Origin: Gammaproteobacteria bacterium
Lineage (GTDB): Bacteria; Pseudomonadota; Gammaproteobacteria; Steroidobacterales; JBCCMA01
NCBI GenBank assembly: GCA_045107005.1
Contig: JBGCFP010000080.1
Coordinates: forward strand, 53,592 to 117,591
DNA length: 64,000 nucleotides
Direction of reading: 5' to 3'
The translations under genes were made by a program, and so were the position numbers. Below the pieces are notes generated by a model that saw nothing but the letters and a program-made list of their open reading frames with translations, made no database searches and was not told the DNA's origin. Within the stretch, counting starts at the first letter, position 1, and each line of letters opens with the position of its first letter. This document shows, in pieces, positions 11,842 to 63,589 of the stretch.

Positions 11842-12996
11842 ATGCCACTGTCGAAACCGGGTGTTCTGGCGGGTTACCTGGACGACCTTCGCGAGCGTGG
11901 CTACGATGACGATCCCGACCAGCGCCAGATTGCCTCTGCGCTGGACGACGTCCGCGTCGCGTTAGCTAAAACCCAGAGCACGTCGAGCCACTGGCCGTTT
12001 TCGAGACGGCGAAAGGTCGATCCGGTCAAAGGTTTGTACATTCACGGCGATGTGGGTCGTGGCAAAACCTACCTCATGGATATGTTCTACGATCGTCTCG
12101 TCGAACGGCGCAAGCTGCGCCAGCATTTCCACCGGTTCATGCAGCGCGTGCACCACGATCTAAACCAACTCAAGCATCAGACTGACCCGCTCACCATCGT
12201 CGCGGCCGATCTGGCGGAGCGTTACCGAGTGATCTGTTTTGACGAGTTTTTCGTCTCGGACATTGCAGATGCAATGCTGTTGGGCGGATTGTTTACGCAG
12301 ATGTTCCGGCGCGGCGTCACGTTGATCGCCACGTCCAACGTGGCGCCGGACGATCTCTATCGCGACGGTCTGCAGCGCAGTCGTTTCCTGCCGGCGATCG
12401 ACCAACTCAACGCACACTGTCGCGTCATTTCGACCAGCGGGGCGAACGACTATCGCTTACGCCTCCTCGCCTCAACGGACAGCTATCGTCATCCACTCAG
12501 TGCCGCTACGCACCAGGCCCTGGCCGAGAGTTTTGATTTACTGGCCCCCGGGCCCGGCAGCGGGCCCGGCGAAATCAATATTCACCACCGCCCGATCCCA
12601 TTTGTGCGACGTGCGAACGGCATCGCATGGTTTGATTTTGACGCGCTGTGCCGCGGCCCGCGAGGCGTGGCTGACTACATCGAGATCGCGCGAACGTTCA
12701 AGACCATTTTGCTTTCCGGTGTGCCCACTCTTGACGCCACGCTGGAGAATGAATCACGGCGCTTTATCGCACTGGTCGACGAATTCTACGACCAGGGCAT
12801 CAATTTGCTGATGTCTGCCAATGAGCCTGTGGACCAGCTCTATCAGGGAAGCAAACTCACGTTCGAGTTTCGCCGCACGCAAAGTCGTCTGCGCGAAATG
12901 CAGAGCACCGAGTACTTGGCCCGGCCGCGCGATTTCCGGGCGACGACAACCAAAACGACCGAGTCAGATCCCTCGATTACTGCACGGTCACCGTAA
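11842..12996 (+). CDS. zapE: AFG1-like ATPase / cell division protein ZapE
   Basis: 384 aa. Walker A '[12 protein letters not shown]' and Walker B '[11 protein letters not shown]'. Overall AFG1/ZapE layout. Confidence 0.85.
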
Positions 12997-34413: not shown

Positions 34414-35448
34414 CTAGACCGGGAAGAAATCGATCGGCTTGGTCGTTGTGATAACGCCCACATCCTGCGCGCCAAACTTGAACAGCCGCACCCGTTGAAC
34501 CAGTTTTGATTCAAATTCCGGCGCGCTGAGCTCACTCGACACCACGCGGCAGTCAAGCACTTCGCCCGTCGGCGCAATCGTCAGCTCCAGAACCAACTTG
34601 CCCTGCAGCGAAGGATCAGCGCGCAGCGCACGTCGATAGAGCGCGTAGATGGCCGCTTTGTTGCGATCAAAAATCATCTCGATCTGATCGCGACTGCGTT
34701 GTCCGGCGGAACCACCGTCAATGCCGGTATCGTTGCTGCCGTCACTGCGACCACCGCCGCCACCGGATCCAACGATCGTGCTGGTCACTTGCGTGACTTC
34801 GCGCCCGGCCAAACCACCGCCACCGGTATTGCGGCTCAATGCCGCCGTGTTGATACCGCCGCTGGCTTTGCCGCTGGCGCTGGTCACCAGCGCGCGTTCG
34901 GAACGCTCCGCAGCACCGACTGTGTTGGACAACGTTCGGTTCGACAGCGCGCTATCAATACTCGAGTTATCGCGCAGATCCGCCAGCTCATCGGCCATCG
35001 CCATCAAACCCGCTTTCGCGGCACGCTCACGCGCCTCGTTAATCGGTGGCGGGGGCGTCACCTCGGGCTTGGGCACGAAGGCCAGTTTGGGTTCGGGTTT
35101 CGGCTCGGGCTTGGGTGGCTCGGGCTTGGGCTCAGGTTTCTTCTCTTCCTTGGGCACCTCCACCACTTTCTCTTCCTCCGGTTCAACAACCGGTGGCGGA
35201 GGTGGCGGCGGCGGCGCTTTGCGCTCGATCAATAGTTTGGCCAGGCGCGGCGGCACGTCGGCGCCGTTGTTGTGCACGATGTCCGAGCTCGGCAGCAATG
35301 GAATAGCCGCGCTCAGAAACAGCGTTGCGCCCGCAATCGCTATGAAAATCTTGCGCAGACGCTGACTCTCTTCGGTAATCGGCGACCACGGCAAATCGTA
35401 GCGCCGGTAGTGCGGAGGCAACGTCAGGGCAATACCGCTCTTGCTCAC
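34414..35448 (-). CDS. TonB-like energy-transducer protein (long, Pro/Glu/Lys-rich linker; GltG-like candidate)
   Basis: 344 aa. N-terminal TM 'IFIAIAGATLFLSAAIPLL', linker 'PPPPPPPVVEPEEEK..KPEPKPEPPKPEPKPEPK', and a C-terminal TonB-C-like 'GKLVLELTIAPTGEVLDCRVVSS'. GTG start in a GTGA overlap with the upstream exbD. Confidence 0.8.
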   Translation of the reverse strand: MSKSGIALTLPPHYRRYDLPWSPITEESQRLRKIFIAIAGATLFLSAAIPLLPSSDIVHNNGADVPPRLAKLLIERKAPPPPPPPPVVEPEEEKVVEVPKEEKKPEPKPEPPKPEPKPEPKLAFVPKPEVTPPPPINEARERAAKAGLMAMADELADLRDNSSIDSALSNRTLSNTVGAAERSERALVTSASGKASGGINTAALSRNTGGGGLAGREVTQVTSTIVGSGGGGGRSDGSNDTGIDGGSAGQRSRDQIEMIFDRNKAAIYALYRRALRADPSLQGKLVLELTIAPTGEVLDCRVVSSELSAPEFESKLVQRVRLFKFGAQDVGVITTTKPIDFFPV

Positions 35449-47668: not shown

Positions 47669-50302
47669 TCAGTCCTGTGGCACGTCGAACTGGTTGTTGT
47701 AGTACTGGCCGCCGATGTCGACCCATTCGACCAGCAGTTTGCGCTCCGCAGGCGTCAGGAAGCCGTCATGCGTGCCGCCCGCCCGGAACCGATCGAAAAA
47801 CTGATCACTGTTGCTGGCCGACGCCACTGCGATTGACTGAGCCACGGGGACCGTGACGAATATTGGCAACATGGTTTCCTCGTCGATGCCCACTTCAATG
47901 AGTCGGTCAATTAACTGGCCGTCCACAACTTCCTGCTCGTTGTCGCCAAAAAATAGCTCGCGGTAGGCCTTGAACTGGCCCGCGTTGTCCGGCGAGGGTC
48001 CATCTGACAAGTCTAACTGAGCGGCGGGCACCTGTGGCATTTGTGCCGCATCAACAATATTGTGGCAGCCGGTGCACGTGTAATCCGAGAGGACGGTCAC
48101 ACCGTCGTCCGCCAGTGTGACGCGCGGCAGGCTCCAGAGCGGATGAATCGATGTTTCGTAGTTAATGATCGAACGGCAGCGGGTGGTCCAGCTGTCAATG
48201 CACGCCAGAGACGCCGGCGGCGGCGTCTGTAAATCGCTGTAATTGAGGGCAAACGACTCGTCTATTGGCCGGCCAGCAGCCACCGGATCGGTCCACTCAT
48301 CTTCATAGACAATATCCAGACTCGGCGTCAGCGCCGCGCAATCGTTGGCGCAGCTGATGCGCACCCGAACCTGGGCCATCGTCTCGCCGAAATCCGCGAA
48401 AAAGGCGGGATTGGTGTTGGGAAAAGGCAAACCCGTCGTTTGGGCACCCGCGTTGAGCGCCGGAAACAGGTCATCGCGCCCGTGCGACACACCCAGGTTG
48501 GTACGGTGACAACCGTTGCATTCGAGCAGTTCGCCGGGGCGCACGTGCATCCAGTTCTCGTGAGAACTGGCGCGACGTTCGCCGTCCACGTCGACCACCT
48601 CGATCTGAAACGCCACGTTCGCGGGCACTTTTGTCATGACCGAACCGTCCGGGGCGATCGGCGCGTAGCCAATGATCTCGCGCATGCCGATGCGACGCGA
48701 ACGGCCGAACGCTTCGCGCGGCACCTCGACGACATCCTGATCCACTTCCGGTACGGATTTGGTCAGGCGAATAAACGCAAACGGGCGATCGTCCACGGTG
48801 GTACGCGCCGGGTCCGAAACAGCATCGAGCCCTCCTGGCGCAAAATCCTGACCGACGACGTCATACACGCTGCGAATGTGCAGAATGCCGACTTCCTCGT
48901 CCACAGCGTCCGGATCGATGTCCAGACCGCGCAAATTGCTCGCGACTTGTGGCGGAAACGGACGCTCCTGAACGGCGACAATATCGCTGAACATCACTCC
49001 TTCTTCCGGCGTCACGACCGGCAGCTGAGTGCCGTCGGTCGGCTCGTAAATCCATAGTCCGTAGAGCGGCGGCGCGTCGACTGCGGTCGGGTCCTCCAAA
49101 AACGTGGAAGTACAGGGCCGAATGATGTCCTCAACCGAAATTCGGCAATCGGACCAGCTGATGAACAATCGGCCGGTGCCGTCGAACAATGGAAACGCAT
49201 CGGCGTACCGGCCGCCCAATGAGAAACTGTCGTCGGTCGTCACCTCGTTCAACGTGGCCGATTCCTGCGCCGGGCCGGGCATACCCGCATTGCTGAGCAC
49301 CGGTTGCTCAATTTCAACGAAACCCTCGGCATCAATGGCGAGCAGATCACCACCAAGCGTTGGCGCAACAAACCCCCGCGCGAGAGTCAGGATTCGGCCG
49401 TCTGGCAACAGCGTTGGCTTCAGAAACTGGATGTCCGCGCCATCCGTACCGGTGGCGTGGCTTAACGCCCCGTACAGCAGTTTGAGATTCGTTCCATCCG
49501 GATTCACGGTGTACAAATTCATTGAGCGATTGCCGCCCACGTCGTCCCAGCGGCGAAAGACGATGCGACCGTCGTCCAGTACGGACGGCTCAAGGTCGTG
49601 ATTCACGTTGTATGAGATCTGGTCAATATCCGTGCCGTCATTTTCCATGACGTGCAACAAGAACGCCGGTTCGTTACGCGATGTCGTGAGAGCGTCATAC
49701 TGCGGCTTGCCTTCATCGAGCAGGATCGCTTTACCGGTGCGCTGACGCGTGGACGAAAAAACAATTCTGTCGTCGGCTAGATACACCGGATTTATATCGT
49801 GACCGGCCTCCGCCACGATGTCGGACTCGATCACGCGACGCAGCGTGTCGTCGACCAGGGAATACTCCCAGATGTCCCACTTGGGTTGATCTTCGTCCTG
49901 CACGTTTTCCAACAACGGCATGCGCATCGCGAAGGCGACACGCGTGCCGTCGTAGGACGACGTCAAATCCCGAACGTCACCAAGTCCGCCGGTAATTTCA
50001 CCCGTGATGTTTCGTTCCTCTGCGCTTGGCGAGGCGCGCTCGCGCACGAACACGTCGGCACCAGCGGCAAACTTGATTGCCTCGCGCGCGTCATCTTCGA
50101 TTAACACGCCGTCGTCGTCAGTTGGCAACGGCCGCTTCACGTAAAGAATGGGAATATCGAGAACCACTGGATCGGGTGATTGACCCGTTGCAACGCCGAT
50201 GCGGTCGCCATCCGAGCCACCGCAACCGGTGTTCCACAGAGCCACCGTTGCCGCCAACGTTGTGGCCAAAACGATCCGCATTGCCGGTCGCGAATTTAGC
50301 AT
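47669..50302 (-). CDS. Large periplasmic/lipoprotein-like beta-propeller protein with two C-terminal CxxCH motifs (HzsA-related-like architecture)
   Basis: 877 aa from the ATG at 50302 (GGGAGAG, 8-nt spacer). Signal ending 'LWNTGC'. Recurrent PD40/TolB-like blades ('DGTRVAFAM', 'DDRIVFSSTR', 'DDGRIVFRRWD', 'PDGRILTLAR'). CNGCH at 48506-48520 and CTGCH at 48062-48076. Confidence 0.75.
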   Translation of the reverse strand: MLNSRPAMRIVLATTLAATVALWNTGCGGSDGDRIGVATGQSPDPVVLDIPILYVKRPLPTDDDGVLIEDDAREAIKFAAGADVFVRERASPSAEERNITGEITGGLGDVRDLTSSYDGTRVAFAMRMPLLENVQDEDQPKWDIWEYSLVDDTLRRVIESDIVAEAGHDINPVYLADDRIVFSSTRQRTGKAILLDEGKPQYDALTTSRNEPAFLLHVMENDGTDIDQISYNVNHDLEPSVLDDGRIVFRRWDDVGGNRSMNLYTVNPDGTNLKLLYGALSHATGTDGADIQFLKPTLLPDGRILTLARGFVAPTLGGDLLAIDAEGFVEIEQPVLSNAGMPGPAQESATLNEVTTDDSFSLGGRYADAFPLFDGTGRLFISWSDCRISVEDIIRPCTSTFLEDPTAVDAPPLYGLWIYEPTDGTQLPVVTPEEGVMFSDIVAVQERPFPPQVASNLRGLDIDPDAVDEEVGILHIRSVYDVVGQDFAPGGLDAVSDPARTTVDDRPFAFIRLTKSVPEVDQDVVEVPREAFGRSRRIGMREIIGYAPIAPDGSVMTKVPANVAFQIEVVDVDGERRASSHENWMHVRPGELLECNGCHRTNLGVSHGRDDLFPALNAGAQTTGLPFPNTNPAFFADFGETMAQVRVRISCANDCAALTPSLDIVYEDEWTDPVAAGRPIDESFALNYSDLQTPPPASLACIDSWTTRCRSIINYETSIHPLWSLPRVTLADDGVTVLSDYTCTGCHNIVDAAQMPQVPAAQLDLSDGPSPDNAGQFKAYRELFFGDNEQEVVDGQLIDRLIEVGIDEETMLPIFVTVPVAQSIAVASASNSDQFFDRFRAGGTHDGFLTPAERKLLVEWVDIGGQYYNNQFDVPQD

Positions 50303-50685
50303 TCGATATGCTCTCCCGAGCTTTGAAAAAAGGCTTGACGTAATTCCTGCCAAACCGAACTTATGTGGAACCAACGCCCGCCGACGCACTTAAGACTGCC
50401 ATCATGACGCTGCCGCTTGTGCAGTCTGTGAATCTAATCACAGAACTCATTTCTCGTTGAGCGACTATCTGTTCTTGCTTGCTTTGTCGTCACTTCGCAT
50501 TTGCTCTGACGCGAACCTTGGTGCCTGAAGTGCGACGTTTTGGAAACAGCTTGTTGCCTGCAATGCCGAAAGCATACGCGAGCCACATAAGGGCTCAAGA
50601 TGTCGCACAATCGCGACATTTGAATCGACGGATCAGGCTGCGCAATACTTGTGCTCACACTGCGATAACACCGAGAACGACTGCT

Positions 50686-51888
50686 ATGCCAAGAACTCTT
50701 GTCTCGAATCCCTGCTCCGAGCGCGCCGCATCACAACGCCCGGGCGTCTACGCTACGCTCGCGTGCACCGCGACGCTGCTGATGCTGGCCGCCACGGCGA
50801 GCGCCGGCCCGCGCGAACAGGCCAAGGTCATGCACGACCGCCTGACCGGCGCACCCCCGACCGCCGACGAACTCGACGCCACCAGTGCCCAAATTGCGGA
50901 CGGTGACGCCGCCGGCGCCGCGCTCGCTGTCACGCTGGACGACGGCTTCTATAACGTAACCCTCAAGAATTTTATTGCCCCGGCAACCAACCGCGATCAG
51001 AGCGTATTTGTGCCGCTGAACGATTACAGCGCCACATTCATTGGCATGGTGCGCGACGACGTACCCATGAATACACTCCTGTCAGCCGATCTGGTCTACG
51101 TCAGTGAAGCCGCAGGCCTGCCCGCGTATTCCGCGACCAATAATGACCACTACGAACAACTCGAGAGTCGCGGCATCAGTCTGCGCGACACCCTGGCCGC
51201 ACGGACGCAGTCTCAGTTGACCTCTCTGCCGGCAACGGCGACCGCCGGCATCATGACCACGCGCGGCGCTGCGGAAGCGTTTTTCATCGATGGTACAAAC
51301 CGCGCAATGTTCCGCTTCACCCTGCTCAATCACATGTGTCGGGATCTGGAACAAGTGGCTGACACCTCGCGCCCGCCCGATCGCATCCGCCAGGACGTGT
51401 CGCGCAGCCCCGGCGGTGACAGCCGTTTATTTCTGAACAACTGCATCGGCTGCCACAGCGGTATGGATCCGCTCGCGCAGGCTTTCGCTTACTACGATTT
51501 TGACGAAAATGTGAATCAGCTGGTGTACACAGAAGGCCAGGTGCAGGAAAAGTACGGCATTAACGAAGACACCTTCAAATTTGGTTTTGTGACGCCTGAC
51601 GACTCCTGGGACAACTACTGGCGCACCGGGCGCAACGGCGTTATCGGCTGGGACGAAAACCGACCGGCTTCAGGCAACGGCGCCAAGTCACTGGGCGAAG
51701 AGCTCGCCAACACCGAGGTGTTTGCGTCGTGTCAGGTCACCAAGGTATTTCGCAACGTCTGCTTGCGCGATCCTGTCGATGCGGCCGACCGCGCCCAAAT
51801 TGAAACGATGACCCAAGCCTTCAAGAGCGACGGCTATTCACTGCGTCCGGTATTTGCCGACGCCGCTGTTTACTGCATGGGCGAATAG
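50686..51888 (+). CDS. Secreted CxxCH protein, Planctomycete PSCyt3/DUF1588-like
   Basis: 400 aa from the ATG at 50686. Signal-like 'ATLACTATLLMLAATASA'. 'NNCIGCHSGMDPLAQAFAYYDF' (CIGCH at 51442-51456) matches the C..CH..MDP pattern I recall for DUF1588. Confidence 0.65.
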   Translation: MPRTLVSNPCSERAASQRPGVYATLACTATLLMLAATASAGPREQAKVMHDRLTGAPPTADELDATSAQIADGDAAGAALAVTLDDGFYNVTLKNFIAPATNRDQSVFVPLNDYSATFIGMVRDDVPMNTLLSADLVYVSEAAGLPAYSATNNDHYEQLESRGISLRDTLAARTQSQLTSLPATATAGIMTTRGAAEAFFIDGTNRAMFRFTLLNHMCRDLEQVADTSRPPDRIRQDVSRSPGGDSRLFLNNCIGCHSGMDPLAQAFAYYDFDENVNQLVYTEGQVQEKYGINEDTFKFGFVTPDDSWDNYWRTGRNGVIGWDENRPASGNGAKSLGEELANTEVFASCQVTKVFRNVCLRDPVDAADRAQIETMTQAFKSDGYSLRPVFADAAVYCMGE

Positions 51889-51890
51889 AC

Positions 51891-54338
51891 ATGATCAAGC
51901 AAACATTCATTCGACTCAGTGCTGTTGTCGCCCTTGCGGCTGGTCTGGCGGCTTGCGGCGGCGGCGGCGCTGAAGTGGTCTCGCTGCCGGTGACCAATCC
52001 ACCACCTGTCGCTGACTACAACGGACCGGCACCATCAACCGCCGACGTGCAGTCGTTCAAACTCAATTTGTGGGACAACATTAGCGACACAAACCGTTGC
52101 GGCGCCTGTCACGGTGCGGGCGGTCAGTCACCGACGTTTGTGCGTAACGACGATATCAACCTCGCCTACTCGGACACCAACCCGCTGGTGAGTCTGACCC
52201 AGCCTTCCGAGTCACTGCTGGTGACGAAGGTTGGCGGCGGCCACAACTGCTGGGAAGCCAGCGACGCGGTTTGCGCCGACATTCTGACGACCTGGATTTC
52301 GTCGTGGGCTGGCGACGCCATCGCCGGTGGCGGCAATCAAATCGAGCTGGAAGCCCCCACCATCAAGGACGTTGGACAAAGCAAAGGCTTCCCCGATGAC
52401 AGCGGCTTGTTCGCCACGACGATTTATCCGGTGCTGACGACCTACTGCTCGGACTGTCATTCGTCAGAATCCTCGTTTGCGGTGCAACCGTACTTTGCGG
52501 ATCCGGACGTGGACACGGCGTACGCCGCGGCGAAGTCGAAACTCAACCTCGACAGCACCGACGAATCGCGGTTTGTTATTCGACTCGTACAGCAGTTCCA
52601 CAACTGCTGGAGCGAATGCGGCAGCGACGGCGCGCAAATGCTCGCCGCCATTGACGCAATGGCCGATCAAATTCCGCTGACGGAAATCGACCCGACTCTG
52701 GTGGTCAGCAAAGCGTTGACGCTGTTCGACGGCACGATCGCGAGCGGCGGTAATCGCTATGACAACAATGCGATCGCGCTGTATGAATTCAAAACCGGCA
52801 CGGGTCTGACCGCCTTTGACACCAGCGGTGTCGAACCGGCACTAAACCTGACGCTGTCCGGTGATGTCAGTTGGTTCGGAGGTTACGGTATCGATCTGCG
52901 CGGCGGCCGGGCTCAAGGCTCTACCAGCGCCAGTTCCAAACTGCACTCACAAATCACGGCCACGGGCGAATACTCGGTTGAAGCCTGGGTCGCAGCGGGC
53001 AATGTCACGCAGGAAGACGCGCGCATTATCAGCTACTCGGCAGGTGTCGACGCGCGCAACATGAGCGTCAGCCAAAATCTGTATAACTACGTGTTTGCCA
53101 ATCGTTCCAGCGTGACCGATGCCAACGGCATGCCGGCGCTATCGACCGCCGATGCGGATGAAGACCTGCAGGCAACGCTACAGCACGTCGTCGTAACCTA
53201 CGATCCGGTAGAAGGTCGACGCATTTACGTGAACGGCACCTTTACCGACGATGTCGACATGGAAGGCGGCGGTTTGCTCAACGACTGGGACGACACGTTT
53301 GCGTTCGTGCTCGGCAACGAAGTGTCCGGCAACCGTACGTGGGAAGGCGTTATTCGGCTGGTCGCCATCCACAACCGGGCGCTGACTGAGGAACAGATCA
53401 CGCAGAACCTGGAAGCAGGCGTCGGTCAGAAGTTCTTCCTGCTGTTCAACCTCGAAGACCACATTGACGTGCCGGCCAGCTATCTGATGTTTGAGGTAGC
53501 GCAGTTTGATACTTACAGCTATTTGTTCCAGACGCCCACGTTCATTTCGCTTGACGGTACGGCCGCACCGGACAACATCGCGATCGCGGGAATTCGCATC
53601 GGTGTGAACGGTCTGGAGGCACCCGTTGGACAGGCGTACCAGAACGTAGACACGATGATTACTGCCGAACGCTACGGTCCAAGCGGCCAGCAGTTGTCCA
53701 GCGTCGGCACCATCGTGCCGCTGGAGAAAGGTCCCGAGAACGACGAATTTTTCCTGAGCTTTGAAATTCTCGGCGACGCAACCAACGTGGTTGTCGAAGC
53801 CGTGCCGCCAGCGCCAGCCGTGCCTGCCGATCTGGACGCAGAGCCGGTCGTCGGTTTGCGCACCTTTGATGAAGTGAACGCGACGATGGCCAAATTGACC
53901 GGCGTTGATCCGAATCAGGCGGACGTGAACCTCACTTACGAGACGATCAAGCAACAGCTGCCAGTTAACGAGAACATCGGCGGCTTCCTGGCTTCACACC
54001 AGGTCGCCATCGCGCAGCTCGCCATCGAGTACTGCAACACGCTGGTTGAAGACACCGGCTTGCGTGCCAGCTACTTCACGGGTGTCGATTTCAATGCGTC
54101 CGCGACGGCGGCGTTCGACGGCGCCGGACGCGATGCGGTGATCAACCCACTGCTTGATCGAATGGTGGGCATCAGCGTGGCGTCGCAGCCCGATACCGCA
54201 GAAGTCCGTACCGAATTGAACAACCTGATCGATACGCTCACCGGCTGTGGCAACAGCTGTGCGGCAGATCGAACCGCGGTAACGGTCAAAGCCGTTTGCG
54301 CAGCGACGCTCGGTAGCGCCGCGACCTTGTTGCAATAA
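51891..54338 (+). CDS. Lipoprotein with two CxxCH modules and a LamG/concanavalin-like domain
   Basis: 815 aa. Lipobox 'LAAGLAAC'. CGACH at 52098-52112 and CSDCH at 52446-52460, each followed about 50 aa later by 'HNCW'. Central LamG-like region ('EYSVEAWVAAG..HVVVTYDPVEGRRIYVNG'). Confidence 0.75.
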   Translation: MIKQTFIRLSAVVALAAGLAACGGGGAEVVSLPVTNPPPVADYNGPAPSTADVQSFKLNLWDNISDTNRCGACHGAGGQSPTFVRNDDINLAYSDTNPLVSLTQPSESLLVTKVGGGHNCWEASDAVCADILTTWISSWAGDAIAGGGNQIELEAPTIKDVGQSKGFPDDSGLFATTIYPVLTTYCSDCHSSESSFAVQPYFADPDVDTAYAAAKSKLNLDSTDESRFVIRLVQQFHNCWSECGSDGAQMLAAIDAMADQIPLTEIDPTLVVSKALTLFDGTIASGGNRYDNNAIALYEFKTGTGLTAFDTSGVEPALNLTLSGDVSWFGGYGIDLRGGRAQGSTSASSKLHSQITATGEYSVEAWVAAGNVTQEDARIISYSAGVDARNMSVSQNLYNYVFANRSSVTDANGMPALSTADADEDLQATLQHVVVTYDPVEGRRIYVNGTFTDDVDMEGGGLLNDWDDTFAFVLGNEVSGNRTWEGVIRLVAIHNRALTEEQITQNLEAGVGQKFFLLFNLEDHIDVPASYLMFEVAQFDTYSYLFQTPTFISLDGTAAPDNIAIAGIRIGVNGLEAPVGQAYQNVDTMITAERYGPSGQQLSSVGTIVPLEKGPENDEFFLSFEILGDATNVVVEAVPPAPAVPADLDAEPVVGLRTFDEVNATMAKLTGVDPNQADVNLTYETIKQQLPVNENIGGFLASHQVAIAQLAIEYCNTLVEDTGLRASYFTGVDFNASATAAFDGAGRDAVINPLLDRMVGISVASQPDTAEVRTELNNLIDTLTGCGNSCAADRTAVTVKAVCAATLGSAATLLQ

Positions 54339-54367
54339 CCCCAACTATTACGAAAACGAGACCTGAT

Positions 54368-55975
54368 ATGGCCCGACGATTTCGACGTTCGAAAAAACCC
54401 CTGCATAAAGATGCCCCGCTTCGCCACGATGACCACGCCCGTCCGGTGACCCGCCGCGATTTGTTGGCACAGGGCTTTCGTACCGGTGCCGGCATGCTCG
54501 CCGGGCCTACGGTCTTCAGTCTGTTTGCCAATGCGAGGTCCGCTCGGGCCGAACTCTCGCAGGATTTGATGGATCTGCGCGAAACCTGCGGGCTTGCGAC
54601 GCAAGGCGCCGGCAAGATTCCGTTTATCTGTTTTGACCTGGCCGGCGGCGTGAACGTCGCGGCATCCAACGTTCTGGTTGGTCAGGACGGCGGGCAGCTG
54701 GATTTTCTGAGTACACAGGGCTACAGCCGTCTGGGCTTGCCCGGCGACATGATTCCTCCGGTGCTGAACGCGCAAACCGGTACGAACGATTTTATTAATC
54801 AGGATCTCGGTCTGGCCTTTCATACCGACAGTGCTTTCTTGCGCGGTATTCAGGACAAGCTGTCAATTATGAACATGGCGTCGGTCAACGGCGCGGTCAT
54901 TCCGGCCCGCTCTGAGAATGACACCGGCAACAATCCGCACAACCCGATGTACGGCATTAATCGCGCCGGTGCGGACGGTGGCTTGCTGACGCTGATCGGC
55001 AGTCGCAGTTCTGATTCCGGCGGCAATTCGCTCGCGCCTGAAGCGCTGATCGATCCAACCGTGCGACCTACAAAAATTGATCGCCCCAGCGACGCCACTG
55101 GCCTGGTCGACACCGGCAAGCTCGTCGGTCTGCTCGAGCAGTCGGACGCCGTGGCCGTCATGGAAGCGATCCAGCGCATCAGCGACGCCAAGCTGGACGC
55201 CGTCAACACTCAGGTCACCAACGACGAGATCCTCAAAGAACTCGTACGCTGCGGCTATGTGAAGGCGGCGGACTTGAGCGATCGCTTCGGCGACCCGTCG
55301 ACGCTGGATCCACTGCTCGACGACGACATCGTCGGGCCGACCGGTATCTTTACCGCGGACGAGCTGGAAAACGATCGCGAGTTTCGCAAGACCGCCTCGG
55401 TCATGAAACTGGTGGTCAACGGTTTTGCTGGCGCCGGCACCATTCAGATGGGTGGCTACGACTATCACACGGGCGATCGCGCCAACGGCGAGATTCGCGA
55501 TTTGCGCGCTGGCCGTTGCATGGGCGCTTGCCTGGAATACGCCGCGCGCGTCGGCGTGCCGCTAATGATGTACGTCTTTAGCGACGGCTCGGTGTTCAGC
55601 AACGGCAGCATTGACAGCTCGGTCGATGGACGCGGGAAAGGCGTGTGGACCGGGGACAATTCCTCGACGGCCGCCTCATTCTTCCTGGTCTACAACCCGG
55701 GCGGTCGCCCACAGCTGTTCACGGGCGATAACCTCGAGCCGGCTCTGCACCAACAGATTGGCGCGTTTCGTGCCGACGGCGGCGTTGAAACCAGTTCAAC
55801 GCCGGCCGCCAATAACGTCAATCTCCTGGTTGAGACAATCATCTACAACTACATGGCTCTGCACGGCGAACAGGCCAATTTCCCAACGTTGTTCCCAGGC
55901 CACGGCCTTGGCCCGGTATCGCTGCGCGACCGATTGACCGCCTTTAATCCGATCGTGAGCGGCACCATCGGCTAA
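54368..55975 (+). CDS. Tat-exported DUF1501-like (sulfatase/alkaline-phosphatase superfamily) protein
   Basis: 535 aa. Twin-arginine signal 'VTRRDLLAQGFRTGAGMLAG'. 'MGGYDYHTGDR' resembles the GG(W/F)D(T)H motif of DUF1501. Confidence 0.7.
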   Translation: MARRFRRSKKPLHKDAPLRHDDHARPVTRRDLLAQGFRTGAGMLAGPTVFSLFANARSARAELSQDLMDLRETCGLATQGAGKIPFICFDLAGGVNVAASNVLVGQDGGQLDFLSTQGYSRLGLPGDMIPPVLNAQTGTNDFINQDLGLAFHTDSAFLRGIQDKLSIMNMASVNGAVIPARSENDTGNNPHNPMYGINRAGADGGLLTLIGSRSSDSGGNSLAPEALIDPTVRPTKIDRPSDATGLVDTGKLVGLLEQSDAVAVMEAIQRISDAKLDAVNTQVTNDEILKELVRCGYVKAADLSDRFGDPSTLDPLLDDDIVGPTGIFTADELENDREFRKTASVMKLVVNGFAGAGTIQMGGYDYHTGDRANGEIRDLRAGRCMGACLEYAARVGVPLMMYVFSDGSVFSNGSIDSSVDGRGKGVWTGDNSSTAASFFLVYNPGGRPQLFTGDNLEPALHQQIGAFRADGGVETSSTPAANNVNLLVETIIYNYMALHGEQANFPTLFPGHGLGPVSLRDRLTAFNPIVSGTIG

Positions 55976-56010
55976 ACCGATACGCACAACCCTCCAGGTG
56001 TGCACCCCGG

Positions 56011-56044
56011 CCGGCACTCGTTTTCAGACGGGTGCCGGTTTTTT
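56011..56044 (+). terminator. Rho-independent terminator after the CxxCH/Tat trio
   Basis: 'CCGGCACtcgttttcagacggGTGCCGGtttttt' is a 7-bp GC-rich stem followed by a T-run, 36 nt after the stop at 55975. Confidence 0.7.
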
Positions 56045-56125
56045 CGTTCAGCCGGCCTGAAATATTTTTGCGCCACACCCGGTCCTGCTTGACACACCCG
56101 TACGTCACTTGAGGAACGAGTCATC

Positions 56126-56662
56126 ATGCGCACCCAGCTTGCCACCGTTGTCGCGTTTATTGCGCTGCTATTTTCCGTCGGCGCGCAAGCGCAGGAACAC
56201 GTCAGTGTTGACTGGACGCTCGACCGCGCAGACGGCACGCCGTTCACGCTCAGCGACAACGAAGGCGAAAAGACCACCTTGATACTGTTTTGGGCGACTT
56301 GGTGCCCCTACTGCAAGGCGCTCATGCCGCATATCGAAAGCATGGTGCTGGAACACGGTCAGGACAACTTTGAAGTACTGGCGATCACCATCGGGGAAGA
56401 TGGCGATCCGGCGAAATATCTGCAGGACAAAGGCTACGATTTCACGCTGTTGCCGGACGGCGACCAGATTGCAGCAAAGTACGGTATCCGTGGTACGCCG
56501 GGCGTGCTCATCGTCAATCAGGCGGGCACAACCGTTTTTGACCTTCGCAGGCAGCCCTCCCAGCAGCTCAACACCGAAAACATGAAGCGCCGGGATGTGG
56601 CGGCTCGTCGTGCGCCGTTCTGGGCTGCCCAGATTCGACAGGCGCTGGACGCCACACTCTGA
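56126..56662 (+). CDS. TlpA-like periplasmic thioredoxin-family protein
   Basis: 178 aa with a signal peptide. Active site 'LFWATWCPYCKALMP'. Confidence 0.85.
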   Translation: MRTQLATVVAFIALLFSVGAQAQEHVSVDWTLDRADGTPFTLSDNEGEKTTLILFWATWCPYCKALMPHIESMVLEHGQDNFEVLAITIGEDGDPAKYLQDKGYDFTLLPDGDQIAAKYGIRGTPGVLIVNQAGTTVFDLRRQPSQQLNTENMKRRDVAARRAPFWAAQIRQALDATL

Positions 56663-57565
56663 TCAGGCTTTGCGCTTACTGCCACCCGCGGCCAATCGCA
56701 TCAGCATTTTCTGGGTTTGCGCGGCGCCAGAATTTGGCGGGGTGTCACCAGGATGCAGCGTATCGAATTCGGCCGCCAATGTGGCGGGTCCCGGCATTGG
56801 CACACACGCGCTTTCCGCGATAAAGGCACGGGCCATTACGCCCGCGCCCGCTTCGGCAATCACCTTTGACGGCGCACACTCGCTGACCAGCCACAACGCC
56901 ATCGGCGCGATTTTCTCGGGTGCCATCGCCTCTCTTAGCTGAGACGGCAGTAAATTCTCGGTCATGCGGGTTGCGGCAATCGGCGACAGCGTGTTCACGC
57001 GAATGTCGAAGCGCTCGCCCTCCAGGTGCAGCGTATTCATCAACCCGATGAGCGCCATTTTCGCCGCACCGTAGTTGGCCTGTCCGTAGTTGCCATACAG
57101 CCCGCTCGCCGACGCGGTAAGCAAAATGCGCCCGTAGTTTTGTTCACTCATAATCGCCCACACCGCATGCGTGCAGTGGAAGGCACCCATGACATGGACG
57201 TCAAAGACCGAGCGAAAATCATCCACGCTCATCTTGCTGAACGTTCGATCGCGCAGTATGCCCGCGTTGTTGATTAACACGTCGATGCGGCCAAACCGTT
57301 CTTGCGTTCGCCGTACCATCGAACCGACGTCGGTCTCATTCGTTACGTCAACCTGTTCGGCGATCGCCAGGCCGCCCGCGGTCGTGATCTCATTGGCAAC
57401 CTGCGTCGCCGAGTCTGCGCTTTTGCCGCTGCCATCCAGCGCCACGCCGTGATCCGCTACCACGACACTCGCCCCGGCCGCGGCCAAGGCCATGGCGTGC
57501 GCACGACCAATCCCGCTACCCGCACCGGTCACGATGGCTACCTGATCGTGAAACAATGGCGTCAT
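56663..57565 (-). CDS. SDR family oxidoreductase (MFE-2-type 3-hydroxyacyl-CoA dehydrogenase-like)
   Basis: 300 aa. 'VTGAGSGIGRAHA', 'NNAGILRD' and 'YGAAKMAL'. Its stop abuts the convergent thioredoxin stop. Confidence 0.85.
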   Translation of the reverse strand: MTPLFHDQVAIVTGAGSGIGRAHAMALAAAGASVVVADHGVALDGSGKSADSATQVANEITTAGGLAIAEQVDVTNETDVGSMVRRTQERFGRIDVLINNAGILRDRTFSKMSVDDFRSVFDVHVMGAFHCTHAVWAIMSEQNYGRILLTASASGLYGNYGQANYGAAKMALIGLMNTLHLEGERFDIRVNTLSPIAATRMTENLLPSQLREAMAPEKIAPMALWLVSECAPSKVIAEAGAGVMARAFIAESACVPMPGPATLAAEFDTLHPGDTPPNSGAAQTQKMLMRLAAGGSKRKA

Positions 57566-57649
57566 TATCTACGCTCCCTGCACAAGCTTCGCTTAAGTCC
57601 TTCAGGCCGACACTCTAGCGTGACTCCCATCGACAATGAAAACGCAGGC

Positions 57650-57676
57650 AAAAAAAACGGCTCCAAAAAGGAGCCG
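57650..57676 (-). terminator. Rho-independent terminator (minus strand) downstream of the small ORF
   Basis: Read on the minus strand it is 'CGGCTCCtttttGGAGCCGtttttttt': a 7-bp stem, 5-nt loop and 8 T. It lies 57 nt after the stop at 57733. Confidence 0.65.
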
Positions 57677-57732
57677 TAAAGCTTGCGTCTCAAGGGGTGC
57701 GCCACATTCAGGGGGATATAGCGCGCCCTTTC

Positions 57733-57957
57733 CTAGGAGCCGGATTTGCCGCGATCGCGCCAGGATTCAAAAGCTTCCCAGCGCGGTGCTGCGTTACTTT
57801 GTTCAGGCCGCGTTGAGGTCCAGAAGTTCGATCGATCTGCCCACTTTCGTTTCAGATTGGTCGAGTCCTGAGTAAAAAAGAAATTCGTGTTGCCGCTTTT
57901 TGAGCGCAGGCCGGGACGGCCTTTCAACGGGGTAAGAGGTTTGTTCATTTCTGGCAT
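57733..57957 (-). CDS. Hypothetical small basic protein (74 aa)
   Basis: ATG at 57957 preceded by GGAG with a 9-nt spacer, and its own terminator downstream. Basic and Trp-rich. No family recognised. Confidence 0.45.
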   Translation of the reverse strand: MPEMNKPLTPLKGRPGLRSKSGNTNFFFTQDSTNLKRKWADRSNFWTSTRPEQSNAAPRWEAFESWRDRGKSGS

Positions 57958-58517
57958 GTCGGGTCACTCCACTTCGGTCTTAAGCTTGAGCATTAACATA
58001 AACGTCAGAGCCCGCTTATGCTCGGAACTGCATCACGCTCTTTTCCTAAATTTTGTAAATTGCGCGCAGTTTTGTTCAATCAAATCGCCGCTTATGTAAA
58101 GGACTGTTCCATATCCGGTGATTCCGGAACGTCTCGCCAATTTAACGCATTTACGTAACCGGCCAAAAAGGCTACACATATTATTGTAAATGTTGCGGTG
58201 CAAAACAATTTGTACGAAAAACCGCCTAATGAGAAACCCTGAGCTGCGGCAATTTTCTGCACGGGTGATATATTTTGCGTCATTGGTCTGACGGATCAGC
58301 CCTTGTCGAGTCGATAAACTTCCGGCGTTGTTCTGATTTGCCGGTATTAAAGCAATGACCCGTCAAGAGCCGGTTTCAATTCAAGCGTGGCAATCGCGAC
58401 CTTGGATTAACAACTCAATCTGAAAGACACAATAATATGCGTTCGGAGCCTGTTCGCCGCTCGTCGGTGACCAAGCTTTGTTCGCGTCTCAAAAGTAAGT
58501 TAAGGGGGAAGAACCAC

Positions 58518-61037
58518 GTGAAATTTCACGCCTATCGATCTTTAATCACAGCGACAGCCGGTGCTGTTCTCGCGGTTAGTGCGTTCAGCGCTAATGCGAA
58601 AGCAAGCGGCGGTGTCGAAAGCATGGAACTGCAGAACCAGGCCACCGCTCAATACGGTGACACCTTCCGCAGTGCCAGCATCAAGTCCTTGTTTGGTGGC
58701 AACACCATGGAACGCGGCGGCGGCGTCTGCGGCGACAGCATCCTCGACGGTGGCGAAGATTGCGACGACGGCAATACCGCCAGCGGCGACGGTTGCTCGG
58801 CAACCTGTCTCTTCGAAGCCGGCTTTGACTGTTCTGCACCAATTCCCGGTGCGGCTGATGTCAACGTCGTGACCGACGGCAGCCTGGAAAACAGCAACCT
58901 CGACGGCGACTGGACTGAAATCAGCCACAGCCTGTTCGGCCAGCTGATTTGCGGCGACAACTGCTTCGGTGCACCACTTGCCTCTGATATTGATGGCAAC
59001 ATCGTGTCGGGCAACTTCTTCCTCGTCTCGGGCGGTAGCTTCACCAGCGCCAGCACCGGTGTCGTGGAACACGCACCTATCGTGATCCCTGCTGCCGGCA
59101 CGACGCTGCAGTTCAACTACGGTTTCGGAACGCCGGGCACGACCTGTCCGGACGCAAACGACGGTCTGCGCCTGCTGATCGACGGTACCGAAGTCTGGTC
59201 GAACCTTGACGCGACCGGCTCATGCGAGCCAATCGACGTTTACACGGTTGAGAGTGTTGACCTGGCCGCGCTTGGCTTGAACGATGACGCTGCTCACACG
59301 CTGCGCTTTGAAGGCACCTCCTCGGTTGTGCCCGCGGGCGACGATCTGCTGAACGTGTTCCTCGATCAAGTTCGCATCCTTGTCCCAGCTGACGATCCAA
59401 CCCCACCGATTCCGAGCATGTGCTCGCCGGTAACCTGTGGTGACGGCGCGTTCCCGCAGTTCTCAGCTGCTGGTTCGGAAGGCTGCGACGATGGCAACCT
59501 GACCGACGGCGACGGTTGCTCTTCAACCTGCGAAGTCGAGCAACCTGACTTCGTTTGCGAAGATCCGGAAGCCGCTGCTGACGAAGGCAACGACATCGAA
59601 GACGGTAGCCTCGAGCAGGGCCGTAACAACCCTGACTGGGTCTCAGCCGGTACGGAATTCGATCCGATCTGTTCGCAAATCTTCTGTGGCGCAGCATTGG
59701 CTGACACCGAAGACGGCGGCGCGTTCTTTGCCTGGTTCGGTGGCTCTTCGCTGCCTAACGACCAGTCGCTGACCCAAGACGTTGTGATCTCTTCGACCGC
59801 TACGACGCTGGACTTCAAACTGCTGGTCGGTATTTGCGATAGCGTGAATGACAACCTGAGCATCGAAGTCGACGGCACCAACGTGTTCGATTTCCCATGC
59901 GACGATAGCTTCCCTGTGTACACGCCGATCTCGGTGCCACTGGGTGCGTTTGCGGATGGCGCGAGCCACACCGTGTCGTTCATCGGTTCCACAGTAGCCA
60001 CCAACGGCGGCAACTCGAACTTCTTCGTTGATGACATCTCGATTGGCACCAACGTGGCGTTCGCTGGCGAGCCAGGCGTCTGCTTTGAGCTGGCTGAAGC
60101 TTGCTCAGTGCCAGAGCAGTTCAGCGCGGGTATCCCGGGCGACTGGACCGTCGTGAACCTTGGCCCGGATGCGGCTGACGGTTGGGGCGCATCGAACGAC
60201 GGTATCTGTGCTTCGCAGAACTGGTCGGGTGGCAACGCTGAGAACAACACCACTGGTGGTGCTGGTATCGCCGCTTGTGCCGATTCCGACGCAACGGGTC
60301 AGATCGATCTCGACGGTGGCGCAACCGCACCGAACGAAATGGACACCTACCTGTGCTCACCAATGCTTGACCTGTCGGCCGTTACCGATCCACAGCTGAG
60401 CTTCCTGGTGAACTATCAGGCTGCGAACAACGACTTCAACGACAACGGTACGCCAGACGATGCGATGGATGATTTCGATGATGACTTCCTGGAAGTCCTC
60501 GTCGGCACGACCCCGCCAAACGCTCTGACCGTGCCTAACTACGATACGCTGGGCAACGTGTTCGATCACCTCGACACCACGCTGGCGACGTCGCCTGAGG
60601 CCGCTCTGGCAGCTGACCTGACGGATTTTGCAACGGAAAGTGAAGCGTATGTCTGCTTCCACTACCGTGGCACTTACGCCTGGTTCGCTCAGGTTGATAA
60701 CCCAGCGCTGCGTGCTACATCGTGCACGAACGATGACATTGATACGGACGGCGACGGCGTCTTCGATATGGTTGATAACTGCATCATGGCTATCAACTCG
60801 ACTCAGTTGGACACGGACGGTGACGGCCACGGCAACGCTTGCGATGCCGACTTCAACAACGATTGCAGCTCGAACGTGATCGATCTGGGTATCTTCCGCA
60901 CGTTGTTCTTCCAGCCTGGTAACCAGGCTGACCTGAACGGCGACGGCATCACGAACGTGATCGACCTGGGTATCTTCCGTACGTTGTTCTTCGGAACGCC
61001 TGGTCCAAGTGCCGACGGTATCTGCACACCTATGTAA
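58518..61037 (+). CDS. Large secreted multidomain protein, paralog 1: 2x(Cys-rich 'CDDGN..GDGCS..C' repeat + beta-sandwich module) + third beta-sandwich + TSP3-like + dockerin-like Ca-binding repeats
   Basis: 839 aa from the GTG at 58518 (GGGGGA, 8-nt spacer). Signal peptide 'LITATAGAVLAVSAFSANA'. 'CGDSILDGGEDCDDGNTASGDGCSATC' and 'CGDG..EGCDDGNLTDGDGCSSTC' resemble the Myxococcus cysteine-rich repeat/DUF4215. Also 'DTDGDGVFDMVDNC', 'DTDGDGHGNACD' and 'DLNGDGITNVIDLGIFRTLFF'. Confidence 0.8.
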   Translation: MKFHAYRSLITATAGAVLAVSAFSANAKASGGVESMELQNQATAQYGDTFRSASIKSLFGGNTMERGGGVCGDSILDGGEDCDDGNTASGDGCSATCLFEAGFDCSAPIPGAADVNVVTDGSLENSNLDGDWTEISHSLFGQLICGDNCFGAPLASDIDGNIVSGNFFLVSGGSFTSASTGVVEHAPIVIPAAGTTLQFNYGFGTPGTTCPDANDGLRLLIDGTEVWSNLDATGSCEPIDVYTVESVDLAALGLNDDAAHTLRFEGTSSVVPAGDDLLNVFLDQVRILVPADDPTPPIPSMCSPVTCGDGAFPQFSAAGSEGCDDGNLTDGDGCSSTCEVEQPDFVCEDPEAAADEGNDIEDGSLEQGRNNPDWVSAGTEFDPICSQIFCGAALADTEDGGAFFAWFGGSSLPNDQSLTQDVVISSTATTLDFKLLVGICDSVNDNLSIEVDGTNVFDFPCDDSFPVYTPISVPLGAFADGASHTVSFIGSTVATNGGNSNFFVDDISIGTNVAFAGEPGVCFELAEACSVPEQFSAGIPGDWTVVNLGPDAADGWGASNDGICASQNWSGGNAENNTTGGAGIAACADSDATGQIDLDGGATAPNEMDTYLCSPMLDLSAVTDPQLSFLVNYQAANNDFNDNGTPDDAMDDFDDDFLEVLVGTTPPNALTVPNYDTLGNVFDHLDTTLATSPEAALAADLTDFATESEAYVCFHYRGTYAWFAQVDNPALRATSCTNDDIDTDGDGVFDMVDNCIMAINSTQLDTDGDGHGNACDADFNNDCSSNVIDLGIFRTLFFQPGNQADLNGDGITNVIDLGIFRTLFFGTPGPSADGICTPM
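60871..60994 (+). repeat. 42-nt direct repeat (2 mismatches) encoding the two dockerin-like segments of paralog 1
   Basis: 60871-60912 'cgaacgtgatcgatctgggtatcttccgcacgttgttcttcc' versus 60953-60994 'cgaacgtgatcgacctgggtatcttccgtacgttgttcttcg'. Both encode NVIDLGIFRTLFF. Confidence 0.9.
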
Positions 61038-61088
61038 TGGGTGAGTAGTTAAAGTACTGGACACGGTCTTTCGAGACGGTGTCGGAAA

Positions 61089-61115
61089 AGCCCCGCTTCG
61101 GCGGGGCTTTTTTTT
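61089..61115 (+). terminator. Rho-independent terminator after paralog 1
   Basis: 'AGCCCCGCttcgGCGGGGCTttttttt' is an 8-bp stem with a tetraloop and a T-run that begins at the last stem base (8 T in all, 61108-61115). It lies 52 nt after the stop at 61037. Confidence 0.8.
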
Positions 61116-61175
61116 GTGCCGGCTTTTGCCATCGATTTTTCGTCGGCGTATGGTGTAAAAAACCGGAGCACACTA

Positions 61176-63589
61176 ATGCTGACTTCCCTTCTGCTTTCCG
61201 CCACAGGTGCTGTCGCCCCCCCCCGTTTGGTTCAGCGATATTCCAAACTCTATTCGGACCAGCGATAAGCACAGACGATGCCCGCGTTGTTGCTGCCGTC
61301 TGTGGCGACGCAAGTCCGGACCCGGGCGAAGAGTGTGACGACGGCAATACGACCAGTGGCGACGGTTGTGCGGCCAACTGCACGATCGAAGCGAGCTACA
61401 TCTGCAGTGACGCGTTGCCAGGCACCCCGCCGGACAATTTGTTCACCGACGGCAGCTTTGAGGACCGAAATGTTGCCGGCACCTGGACCGTCGATCACAG
61501 TCTTTTTGGCCCGGTGATCTGCGGCGATGATTGCGGCAGCTTCGGCGGCGGATTCGCCTTGGATCTCAACGGCAACCCTGTAAACGGCGTCTGGGTACTA
61601 CTTTCCGGGGGCAGTTTCACGGTCGCTACAACAGGATTCGTCGAGCACGATCCCGTTGTTATCCCACCCGAAGCCCAAACCCTGCAATTTAACTGGGGGC
61701 TGGGCACGGTGGGGACGTCCTGCCCGGATCAGGACGACGGCGTTCGAGTACTCATCGACGGCCAACCGGTTTGGTCGAGCAACGACGACGGCATTTGTAC
61801 CGCGCAAGCCCTATGCACCCTGGCGTCTATCGATTTGGCCGCGCTGGGTGTCAATGATGGCGCCGCGCACAGCGTGCGCATTGAAGGCACGTCATCGGTC
61901 GTTCCTGCCGGCGACGACCTGACCAATATTTTTCTCGATCAGATACGTATCTTCGTCGAGGCTGACGATGCAGAACCCCCAGTGCCCAGCCAGTGCCGCG
62001 AAATAGTCTGCGGCGATGACGAGCAGTTTGGTGGCGAACAGTGCGACGACGGCAACCTAACCGACGGCGACGGTTGCAGTTCTACGTGCGAAGTTGAACA
62101 ACCCGATTTCGTGTGCACTGACGCCCAGCCCCCTACCGAATCTGGCAACGATGTGACCGACGGCGGGCTGGAGCTGGGTCGCGACAACCCGCACTGGAAC
62201 TCGGCAGGTACAGTTTTCGATCCGATCTGTTCGCAATTCTACTGTGGCGCTGCTTTGGCTGACGCCGAAGACGGCGGCGCGTTCTATGTTTGGTTCGGTG
62301 GCTCTTCGCTGCCAAACGACCAGTGGCTGACGCAAGACGTTGTGATCTCTTCGACGGCTACCACGCTGGACTTCAAACTGCTGGTTGGTGTTTGCGATAG
62401 CGTGGATGACAATCTGAGCATCGAAATCGACGGCACAACAGTTTTCGATTTCCCATGCGACGACAGCTTCTCCGTGTATACGCCGATCTCGGTGCCACTG
62501 GGTGTGTTTGCGGATGGCGCGAGCCACACCGTGTCATTCATTGCTAGCACGGTTGCCACCAACGGCCGCAACTCGAACTTCTTCGTCGACAACATTTCAA
62601 TTTCCACCAACACGTCGTTCGCCGGAGTGCCCAGCTCTTGTACTGAACTGCCACCTTCCTGCAATACACCCGAGCAATTCTCGACTGACATTCCGGCTGA
62701 CTGGACGGTGATCAATCTGAGCGAAGACCCGATCGACGGGTGGGGAGCGTCCACCGACGGCGTGTGCGCCTCGCAAAACTGGTCGCCAGGCACGGACAGC
62801 AATAACGTGACAGGTGGCGCCGGCATTGCCGCCTGCGCGGATTCCGACGCAACCGGTCAAATCGATGTAGACATGGGTAGCCCGTTTGCAAACGAAATGG
62901 ACACCTATCTGTGCACCCCACCGATGGACCCGTCGCAAGTCACGCAGCCGCGCCTGAGTTTTCTGGTCAACTATCAATCAGCCGGCAATCGTTTGAACGA
63001 CAATCAAACACCGGACGATCCCAGCGACGATTTCGATGACGATTTTTTGGACGTGCTCGTTGGCGTATTACCACCGACCGAATTGACCGTCGTGGACTAT
63101 GATTTGCTTGGCCAGGTAGTTGATCATCTCGACACCACTTTGACCCTGTCGCGCGCGAGTTCGCAGGCCGTAGACCTGTCTGACTTCGCCAACGAGTCTG
63201 AAGTCTACGCGTGCTTCCACTACCGCGGCACCTACGACTGGTACGCGCAAATCGATAATGTGGCGCTGCGCGGCGCGTCCTGTGTCGCCGAGCCCGATAC
63301 CGATGGCGACGGCGTGCTCGATGCCGTGGACAACTGCACGAACGAACCCAATCCCAGCCAACTGGATACTGACGGTGACGGGCACGGCAACCGCTGTGAC
63401 GCCGATTTCAATAACGACTGCAGCGTTAATGCCGAGGACTTGGGCATTTTCCGCACGTTATTTTTTATGCCCGGCAATCAAGGGGATCTAAGCGGCGACG
63501 GGATCACGAGCGTTACGGATTTGGGTTTGTTTCGCGTGCTTTTTTTCAGCACTCCCGGGCCGAGCGCCGCGGGACTTTGCACAACGTAA
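61176..63589 (+). CDS. Large secreted multidomain protein, paralog 2; as sequenced the signal-peptide frame (ATG 61176) and the body frame (ORF 61079-63589) are out of register at a C9 tract (frameshifted or phase-variable)
   Basis: Same architecture as paralog 1. The body ORF has no ATG/GTG/TTG between the terminator and the first conserved Cys-rich repeat. ATG 61176 (GGAG, 7-nt spacer) encodes 'MLTSLLLSATGAV..', homologous to the paralog 1 signal peptide, but stops at 61266-61268. One extra C or two fewer C would fuse the frames. Confidence 0.75.
61216..61224 (+). repeat. Homopolymeric C9 tract at the frame junction of paralog 2
   Basis: Read directly: 'gtcgCCCCCCCCCgtttgg' contains nine consecutive C. 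Confidence 0.95.

Follow-up and report, generated by a model that had tools for sequence, protein, structure and literature searches.

In the metagenome-assembled genome (MAG) of an uncultured environmental gammaproteobacterium (assembly GCA_045107005.1), we analyzed a stretch of 64,000 nucleotides of the 123,454-bp contig JBGCFP010000080.1 (positions 53,592 to 117,591, forward strand; hereafter the window). It contains a tandem pair of genes, paralog 1 and paralog 2, for predicted secreted proteins with DUF4215 cysteine-rich repeats and a dockerin-like tail. In paralog 2, a homopolymer of nine cytosines (C9) stands between a signal-peptide-like leader and a long, intact body that is open in a different frame. 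Judged from the sequence, the locus is built like a classical translational slipped-strand switch and is a candidate addition to that known class. Our tentatively favored reading is that C9 is a hypermutable ON/OFF tract caught in its OFF state. The first-pass annotation of this DNA had left the choice between a switch, a pseudogene and a homopolymer error. The structure it described stands and an old pseudogene falls away; the candidate readings that are left are the switch, a frameshift of very recent date and a miscalled consensus.

A poly-C tract between the leader and body frames of paralog 2

The leader frame of paralog 2 opens at ATG 61176 (Table 1), translates as MLTSLLLSATGAVAPPRLVQRYSKLYSDQR and stops after 30 codons. 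Its portion 5' of the tract, MLTSLLLSATGAVAPP, resembles the paralog 1 signal peptide in a sequence comparison. The only body-frame start codons before position 61500 are GTG 61079, TTG 61415 and TTG 61439, and TTG 61415, the first usable one, already lies downstream of the first Cys-rich repeat. The first-pass annotation had reported the tract as the meeting point of two frames, a GGAG-ATG leader frame similar to the paralog 1 signal peptide, and a body frame without a start between the paralog 1 terminator and the first Cys-rich repeat, with GTG 61079 as its only upstream start; we found all of this as described. The promoter-like site, ribosome-binding site (RBS) and ATG that the leader has of its own support the view that the tract parts a genuine leader from a conserved body.

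The tract occupies codons 14-17 of what would be an 804-codon gene. Frame arithmetic gives a single open reading frame (ORF) with a product of 804 amino acids (aa) (MLTSLLLSATGAVAPPPFGSAIFQTLFG...) at 10 C, and 7 C fuses the frames too (803 aa), in agreement with the earlier claim of one continuous pre-protein at either length; at 8, 9, 11 or 12 C, translation ends after 30-54 aa. The mature N-terminus of the repaired product aligns with that of the homologue P0012 (...GSAHA/RFETLFG). The NCBI annotation records paralog 2 as an intact protein (MFK8016014.1; 61415-63589, 724 aa), a call that omits the leader and the first Cys-rich repeat.

There are 16 C runs of length 5 in the window, none of lengths 6-8 and one of length 9; G runs end at length 5, and C9 is the sole C or G run of at least 6 in the 64 kb. 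C/G runs in the window (58.6% G+C) become 4- to 8-fold rarer per added base, a decay that extrapolates to some 0.01-0.02 tracts of nine per 64 kb. Related gammaproteobacterial loci totaling 95 kb contain a G/C run of 7 but nothing of 8 or longer. The dicodon CCC-CCC encodes none of the 51 Pro-Pro pairs found elsewhere in 25 window genes, and the other Pro runs in the window, including one of eight Pro, are written in mixed codons. The tract is a clear local outlier, although not one that would be impossible without selection. As an uninterrupted C9 it falls within the range of the pure hypermutable repeats of contingency loci (G/C homopolymers of about 7-8 or more), and it lies in the 5' coding region, which is, besides the promoter, where a tract is placed to toggle expression.

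Table 1. Features of the tandem paralog locus (window coordinates).
Feature	Position	Strand	Remarks
Paralog 1 promoter-like site, TTAACA-18-AATAAT	58407..58436	+	CAATAAT conserved upstream of the orthologues in L084 and L086
Paralog 1, intact secreted DUF4215/TSP3/dockerin-like protein	58518..61037	+	GTG 58518 is the likely true start (VKFHAYRSLITATAGAV...)
Paralog 1 intrinsic terminator, GCCCCGC-TTCG-GCGGGGC + T8	61086..61115	+	Conserved after the L084 orthologue (12571-12601)
Paralog 2 promoter-like site, TTGCCA-17-TATGGT	61126..61154	+	Putative; consensus match only, 9 of 12 positions
Shine-Dalgarno sequence, GGAG	61165..61168	+	7 nt upstream of ATG 61176; read from sequence
Paralog 2 leader frame	61176..61268	+	ATG, signal-peptide-like MLTSLLLSATGAVA, tract, 14 out-of-frame codons, TAA 61266-68
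C9 homopolymer	61216..61224	+	Junction of leader and body frames; G flanks on both sides
Paralog 2 body	61226..63589	+	787 codons open, -1 frame relative to ATG
First DUF4215 Cys-rich repeat	61301..61381	+	Pfam match, body residues 26-52; lost in the database annotation
Putative gene-conversion patch with paralog 1	62198..62560 (approximate)	+	Third-codon-position identity 0.78-0.88
Thrombospondin type 3 (TSP3) calcium-binding repeats and dockerin-like duplicated segment, C-terminal	63275..63586	+	Pfam TSP_3

Integrity and history of the paralog 2 body

None of the 787 body codons is a stop, and no second lesion occurs in the 2.36 kb. Paralog 2 keeps 30 of 30 conserved Cys columns and 229 of the 253 family-invariant positions, and the ratio of nonsynonymous to synonymous substitution rates (dN/dS) against paralog 1 is 0.155. 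This low ratio, the retained cysteines and the absence of stops describe an otherwise intact gene maintained by selection, as a contingency locus should be. Of the marks of a pseudogene, a disabling lesion is present (the frameshift), and further lesions or a relaxed constraint (dN/dS near 1) are absent. An old, decayed pseudogene is excluded by the same dN/dS, cysteines and open frame, and the suggestion in the first-pass annotation of a plain pseudogene with further disabling mutations is thereby refuted.

The region upstream of the pair (window 50479-58400) is syntenic with a related MAG (GCA_045106455.1; locus L084), and a second relative (L102) has the same arrangement of a redoxin gene, a 74-aa ORF and the paralog 1 orthologue. 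The orthologue is single-copy in both, which makes paralog 2 a tandem duplicate specific to this lineage. Saturated synonymous sites between the paralogs (dS about 1.6, above 1.2) show the duplication to be old. One patch of about 360 nt, with its partner in paralog 1 at approximately 59550-59910, departs from the third-position identity of about 0.4-0.45 found outside it (Table 1), and this pattern indicates a fairly recent gene conversion within the tandem pair.

Homologous loci and the possibility of a recent loss

In all 12 homologous loci with a complete 5' end, the signal peptide is in frame with the body, and none of the 12 shows a poly-C tract, a long G/C run or a detached leader. Three apparent parallels were rejected. 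The homologues P0005 and P0010 (loci L086 2094-4517, L087, and L085 4001-6445) seemed leaderless, but gene callers had chosen an internal ATG and an upstream in-frame GTG restores the signal peptide; in L086 and L087, a spurious 49-aa ORF is called over the leader region in another frame. A frameshift at GGTGGTGGG in P0016 is probably a low-coverage long-read error: this gene (ENA ERZ26696514, contig ctg288416_2.69x_l) is split at GGTGGTGGGCACGG (L102 4790-4830), with the remainder called as a separate 170-aa protein, and the contig name gives a coverage of 2.69x. A C7 run downstream of the L084 orthologue is unrelated intergenic sequence, belonging to a C7-A6-C4 low-complexity run (L084 12980-13040) beside a long inverted repeat (about 12921-12973).

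The absence of the tract from all 12 loci is one of several points that weigh against a switch. The leader of paralog 2 has no Lys or Arg and an 11-mer hydropathy of 1.66 versus 2.0-3.0 in relatives, which suggests a weaker signal peptide than theirs. Paralog 2 has also changed at 24 family-invariant positions versus seven in paralog 1, and these extra changes, together with the weak leader, hint at some relaxed constraint. Extrapolated to a whole genome, the decay of run lengths leaves room for roughly one tract of this kind to arise without selection, and for this reason where the tract lies tells as much as that it exists. Finally, the window holds no other candidate repeat locus, so that nothing suggests a general use of contingency loci by the organism.

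The first three of these points also favor a recent dead-end pseudogene, in which slippage brought an incidental tract of C10 (or shorter), carried by a redundant duplicate, to C9, and losing the gene was neutral and effectively permanent. The out-of-frame consensus is as expected under such a loss, the intact paralog 1 next door could cover the function, and the two syntenic relatives manage with one copy. Its time frame is narrow, however. Since 2.6% of the possible substitutions create a stop, a gene free of selection would very likely have acquired one by about 0.05 substitutions per site; none has appeared in the 2.36 kb, so any fixed inactivation is younger than that, a small fraction of the history of the gene. 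Long-term constraint and the retention of every conserved Cys also speak against it, and C9 is highly revertible, so that permanence is mechanistically hard to sustain. We consider this explanation somewhat unlikely.

Quality of the assembly and the tract-length call

A second rival explanation is that the true tract is in frame (most simply C10) and the gene ON, with the tract still a slippage hotspot, and that C9 is a consensus or sequencing error. Homopolymers are classic sites of indel miscalls, a MAG is a population consensus, and assemblies of this family do contain frameshift artefacts, P0016 on its 2.69x long-read contig being an example; the choice between C9 and C10 is the hardest call in the window. 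The remainder of the window argues in the other direction. Long ORFs cover 93% of it, and long genes match their Pfam models end to end, e.g., that of a 1,681-aa NAD-glutamate dehydrogenase. The A7, A8, T7 and T8 runs lie inside intact genes or terminators, and no gene is broken at a homopolymer elsewhere. Moreover, a Logan contig from run SRR29999183, reached via the upstream SDR gene, shares 1,649 bp with the window at 100% identity, so the same population is present in that run; the contig stops 3 kb before the tract. We regard an assembly artefact as unlikely, only a little behind the recent pseudogene in probability.

Searches for a second copy of the locus gave no independent length for the tract. 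Exact look-ups of the two NCBI paralog proteins returned no independent copy, a look-up of the redoxin gene returned no record, and the DNA pattern flanking the tract had no match in JGI metagenomes. A protein-based JGI scan for the paralog 2 locus reached a best identity of 63%. With the N-terminal 238 aa as query, the matches spanned 143-414 aa and included no identical fragment, although fragments shorter than these may have escaped the search. Exact look-ups of the leader peptides expected at C8, C9, C11 and C12 and of the full products expected at C7 and C10 found none of them.

Could the gene be expressed with nine cytosines?

Two further explanations accept C9 as it stands. In the first, C9 would be stable and the full-length protein would be made at a set low level through -1 ribosomal frameshifting or RNA polymerase slippage. 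The tract includes a formal X_XXY_YYZ heptamer in the ATG frame (C_CCC_CCC, 61217-61223), at which a -1 slip would give the same APPPF product as 10 C, and a Shine-Dalgarno-like AGGTG (61205-09) is found 7 nt upstream of the run. Rescue of homopolymer frameshifts is known, e.g., for Citrobacter tssM. The arrangement thus resembles -1 frameshifting in dnaX and the IS3 family of insertion sequences (IS) and transcriptional realignment in Citrobacter tssM and IS elements, in that a slippery run joins two overlapping frames. Known bacterial sites, however, are A/T-rich, have stimulatory elements in the case of ribosomal frameshifting, and are conserved among homologues, none of which holds here. 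The fold of 61160-61330 (z = -0.85) offers no stimulatory structure, only a weak 6-bp hairpin with a 12-nt loop after the tract. The spacing of AGGTG is closer than that of the upstream Shine-Dalgarno sequence of dnaX (roughly 10 nt), so it does not qualify as a stimulatory element either. None of the 12 homologous loci with a complete 5' end has the two-frame arrangement, and a +1 slip by tRNA-Pro would go in the wrong direction. The literature consulted on bacterial transcriptional slippage concerns A/T runs, with their weak RNA:DNA hybrid, and a phrase search of a review of recoding gave no match on C runs. Recoding is, in our judgment, very unlikely.

In the second, translation would start at GTG 61079, the only start that opens the whole body frame, and the gene would be intact as it is. 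The first-pass annotation had named this start as a way to overturn its reading, but we do not find it credible. Translation would have to cross the strong hairpin of a terminator, and in L084, where no gene follows, this hairpin is conserved in the same role; no RBS precedes the GTG. It also lies outside any transcript begun at the promoter-like site of paralog 2, and no homologue has a counterpart of the N-terminus that would result (MSEKPRFGGAFFCAGFCHRFF...). We rate this start as very unlikely, below recoding.

The predicted product and its family

The body encodes two DUF4215 Cys-rich repeats, three beta-sandwich modules, TSP3 repeats and a dockerin-like tail. Both paralogs match the Pfam model PF13948 (DUF4215; 34.2 bits for paralog 2 and 33.7 bits for paralog 1, cut-off 27), and paralog 2 also has a Pfam match to thrombospondin type 3 repeats. 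A profile of the family aligns with the calcium-binding repeats of COMP/thrombospondin (E = 2e-31) and, at its extreme C-terminus, with solved cellulosomal dockerins (E = 1e-5 to 2e-3); the Pfam model Dockerin_1 stays below threshold for paralog 2. The AlphaFold model of paralog 2 (mean predicted local distance difference test score, pLDDT, 73) contains the three beta-sandwich modules and a C-terminal pair of helices (residues 736-746 and 763-773). By fold comparison only, the beta-sandwiches resemble reelin jelly-rolls, the carbohydrate-binding modules (CBM) CBM51/CBM22 and gingipain adhesin domains. These models fit best with a putative secreted protein, rich in disulfides and of a binding or adhesin-like type. 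Its 30 conserved cysteines require export for folding.

Docking onto some partner is probable. The window yielded no cohesin partner, and no cohesin gene adjoins the paralog pair. Directly downstream of the family member P0015, a 178-aa gene with a weak cohesin-domain match is present (L088 6427-6963), which fits a cohesin-dockerin pairing for the family. The closest known likeness is with Myxococcus-type DUF4215 proteins with cellulosome-style dockerins, to which the family is linked by its DUF4215 repeats, the profile match of its C-terminus to dockerins and its TSP3 repeats; the cohesin-domain gene next to one family member adds to the likeness with cellulosome-style systems. A point of difference is that the resemblance of the beta-sandwich modules to CBMs, reelin jelly-rolls and gingipain adhesin domains is one of fold only.

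The proposed slipped-strand switch and its known counterparts

Under the favored reading, paralog 2 would be a functional tandem duplicate for a secreted protein of binding modules, rich in disulfides and ending in a dockerin-like tail, and its reading frame would cross a pure poly-C tract at the junction of signal peptide and mature protein. A G/C homopolymer of such length gains or loses units by slipped-strand mispairing far above the ordinary mutation rate. Cells with 10 C (or 7 or 13) would make and export the full pre-protein (MLTSLLLSATGAVAPPPFGSA/IFQTLFG...), and cells with 8, 9, 11 or 12 C would make a leader peptide of 30-54 aa only. The metagenome consensus, C9, would be OFF and one slip away from ON. 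Tract length would then vary in the population and switching would be useful to the organism, possibly because it sheds an exposed surface protein that phages or grazers target, or because it spares the expense of making that protein.

The nearest counterpart is nanH3 of Gardnerella piotii, which carries a poly-C tract of 8-14 right after the signal-peptide coding region and for which tract-length heterogeneity was shown within cultures; its authors point out that such tracts are difficult for the usual sequencing and assembly methods (bioRxiv 10.1101/2020.09.16.300947). In both cases, a C run of similar length lies directly 3' of the signal-peptide region of a gene for a large extracellular protein, out-of-frame lengths lead to a short leader peptide and to database annotations without a signal peptide, and two tract lengths three bases apart restore the frame. 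The differences concern the evidence, the host and the protein: length variation was demonstrated for nanH3 within colonies and between strains, whereas one consensus length is read here; the host is a human-associated actinobacterium there and an uncultured environmental gammaproteobacterium here; and nanH3 encodes a sialidase, unrelated to the DUF4215/dockerin protein of paralog 2.

More widely, G/C homopolymers in the 5' coding region of surface-protein genes act as translational ON/OFF switches through slipped-strand mispairing, as described in three reports (PMC8355987, PMC2823697, PMC5084427). Paralog 2 shares this placement with the poly-G/C contingency genes of Neisseria, Campylobacter and Helicobacter. 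In Neisseria pilC, the G/C tract lies in the signal-peptide region. Those host-adapted species, however, hold dozens of tracts (a 'phasome'), in contrast to the single tract in 64 kb here. The first-pass annotation had called such a switch unusual in a free-living gammaproteobacterium, which overstates the case given nanH3 and an environmental Shewanella for which N-terminal repeat enrichment has been reported.

Paralog 1 and the neighboring genes

The start of paralog 1 has been set wrongly twice, at ATG 58437 when the longest ORF is taken and at ATG 58623 in the NCBI annotation (804 aa, no signal peptide). ATG 58437 abuts the conserved -10-like CAATAAT and therefore cannot be the start codon. 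GTG 58518 is preceded by AAGGGGGAAGAACCAC, and conservation of both this start and the signal peptide extends to P0003, P0004, P0006 and P0009. No paralog 2 follows the conserved terminator in L084.

Upstream of the paralogs, a syntenic block (window 47669-55975, L084 67-8425) encodes a hydrazine-synthase-alpha-like beta-propeller protein (906 aa), a PSD2/DUF1585-like protein (469 aa), a Laminin_G_3 protein with weak cytochrome c motifs (815 aa) and a 535-aa protein without a Pfam match. Elsewhere in the window, a 344-aa ORF without a Pfam match (34414-35448, minus strand) contains runs of eight and four Pro in mixed codons, which are adjoined by short GGC/GGT-rich repeats (35085-35216). A neighbor of the beta-lactamase family was considered as a broken gene and rejected, as it runs off the window end.

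Implications

If the tract length is miscalled or the gene is a fresh pseudogene, the practical lesson is one of annotation correction only. Beyond this, the finding is of moderate importance, which rests on the environmental setting and on the uncharacterized protein family. If the switch is real, MAG annotation pipelines would silently turn such loci into N-terminally truncated 'intact' proteins, and phase variation would be attached to the DUF4215 plus dockerin family. A variable tract length would make this a clear case of phase variation through repeats in a bacterium that is not host-associated. It is possible, though we hold it with more reserve than the switch itself, that a free-living gammaproteobacterium uses a pathogen-style contingency locus for the stochastic export of a dockerin-tethered, adhesin-like surface protein, with its tandem paralog expressed constitutively. 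Such a locus, whose switching metagenome reads would reveal directly, would be a form of bet-hedging against phages, grazers or changing surfaces.

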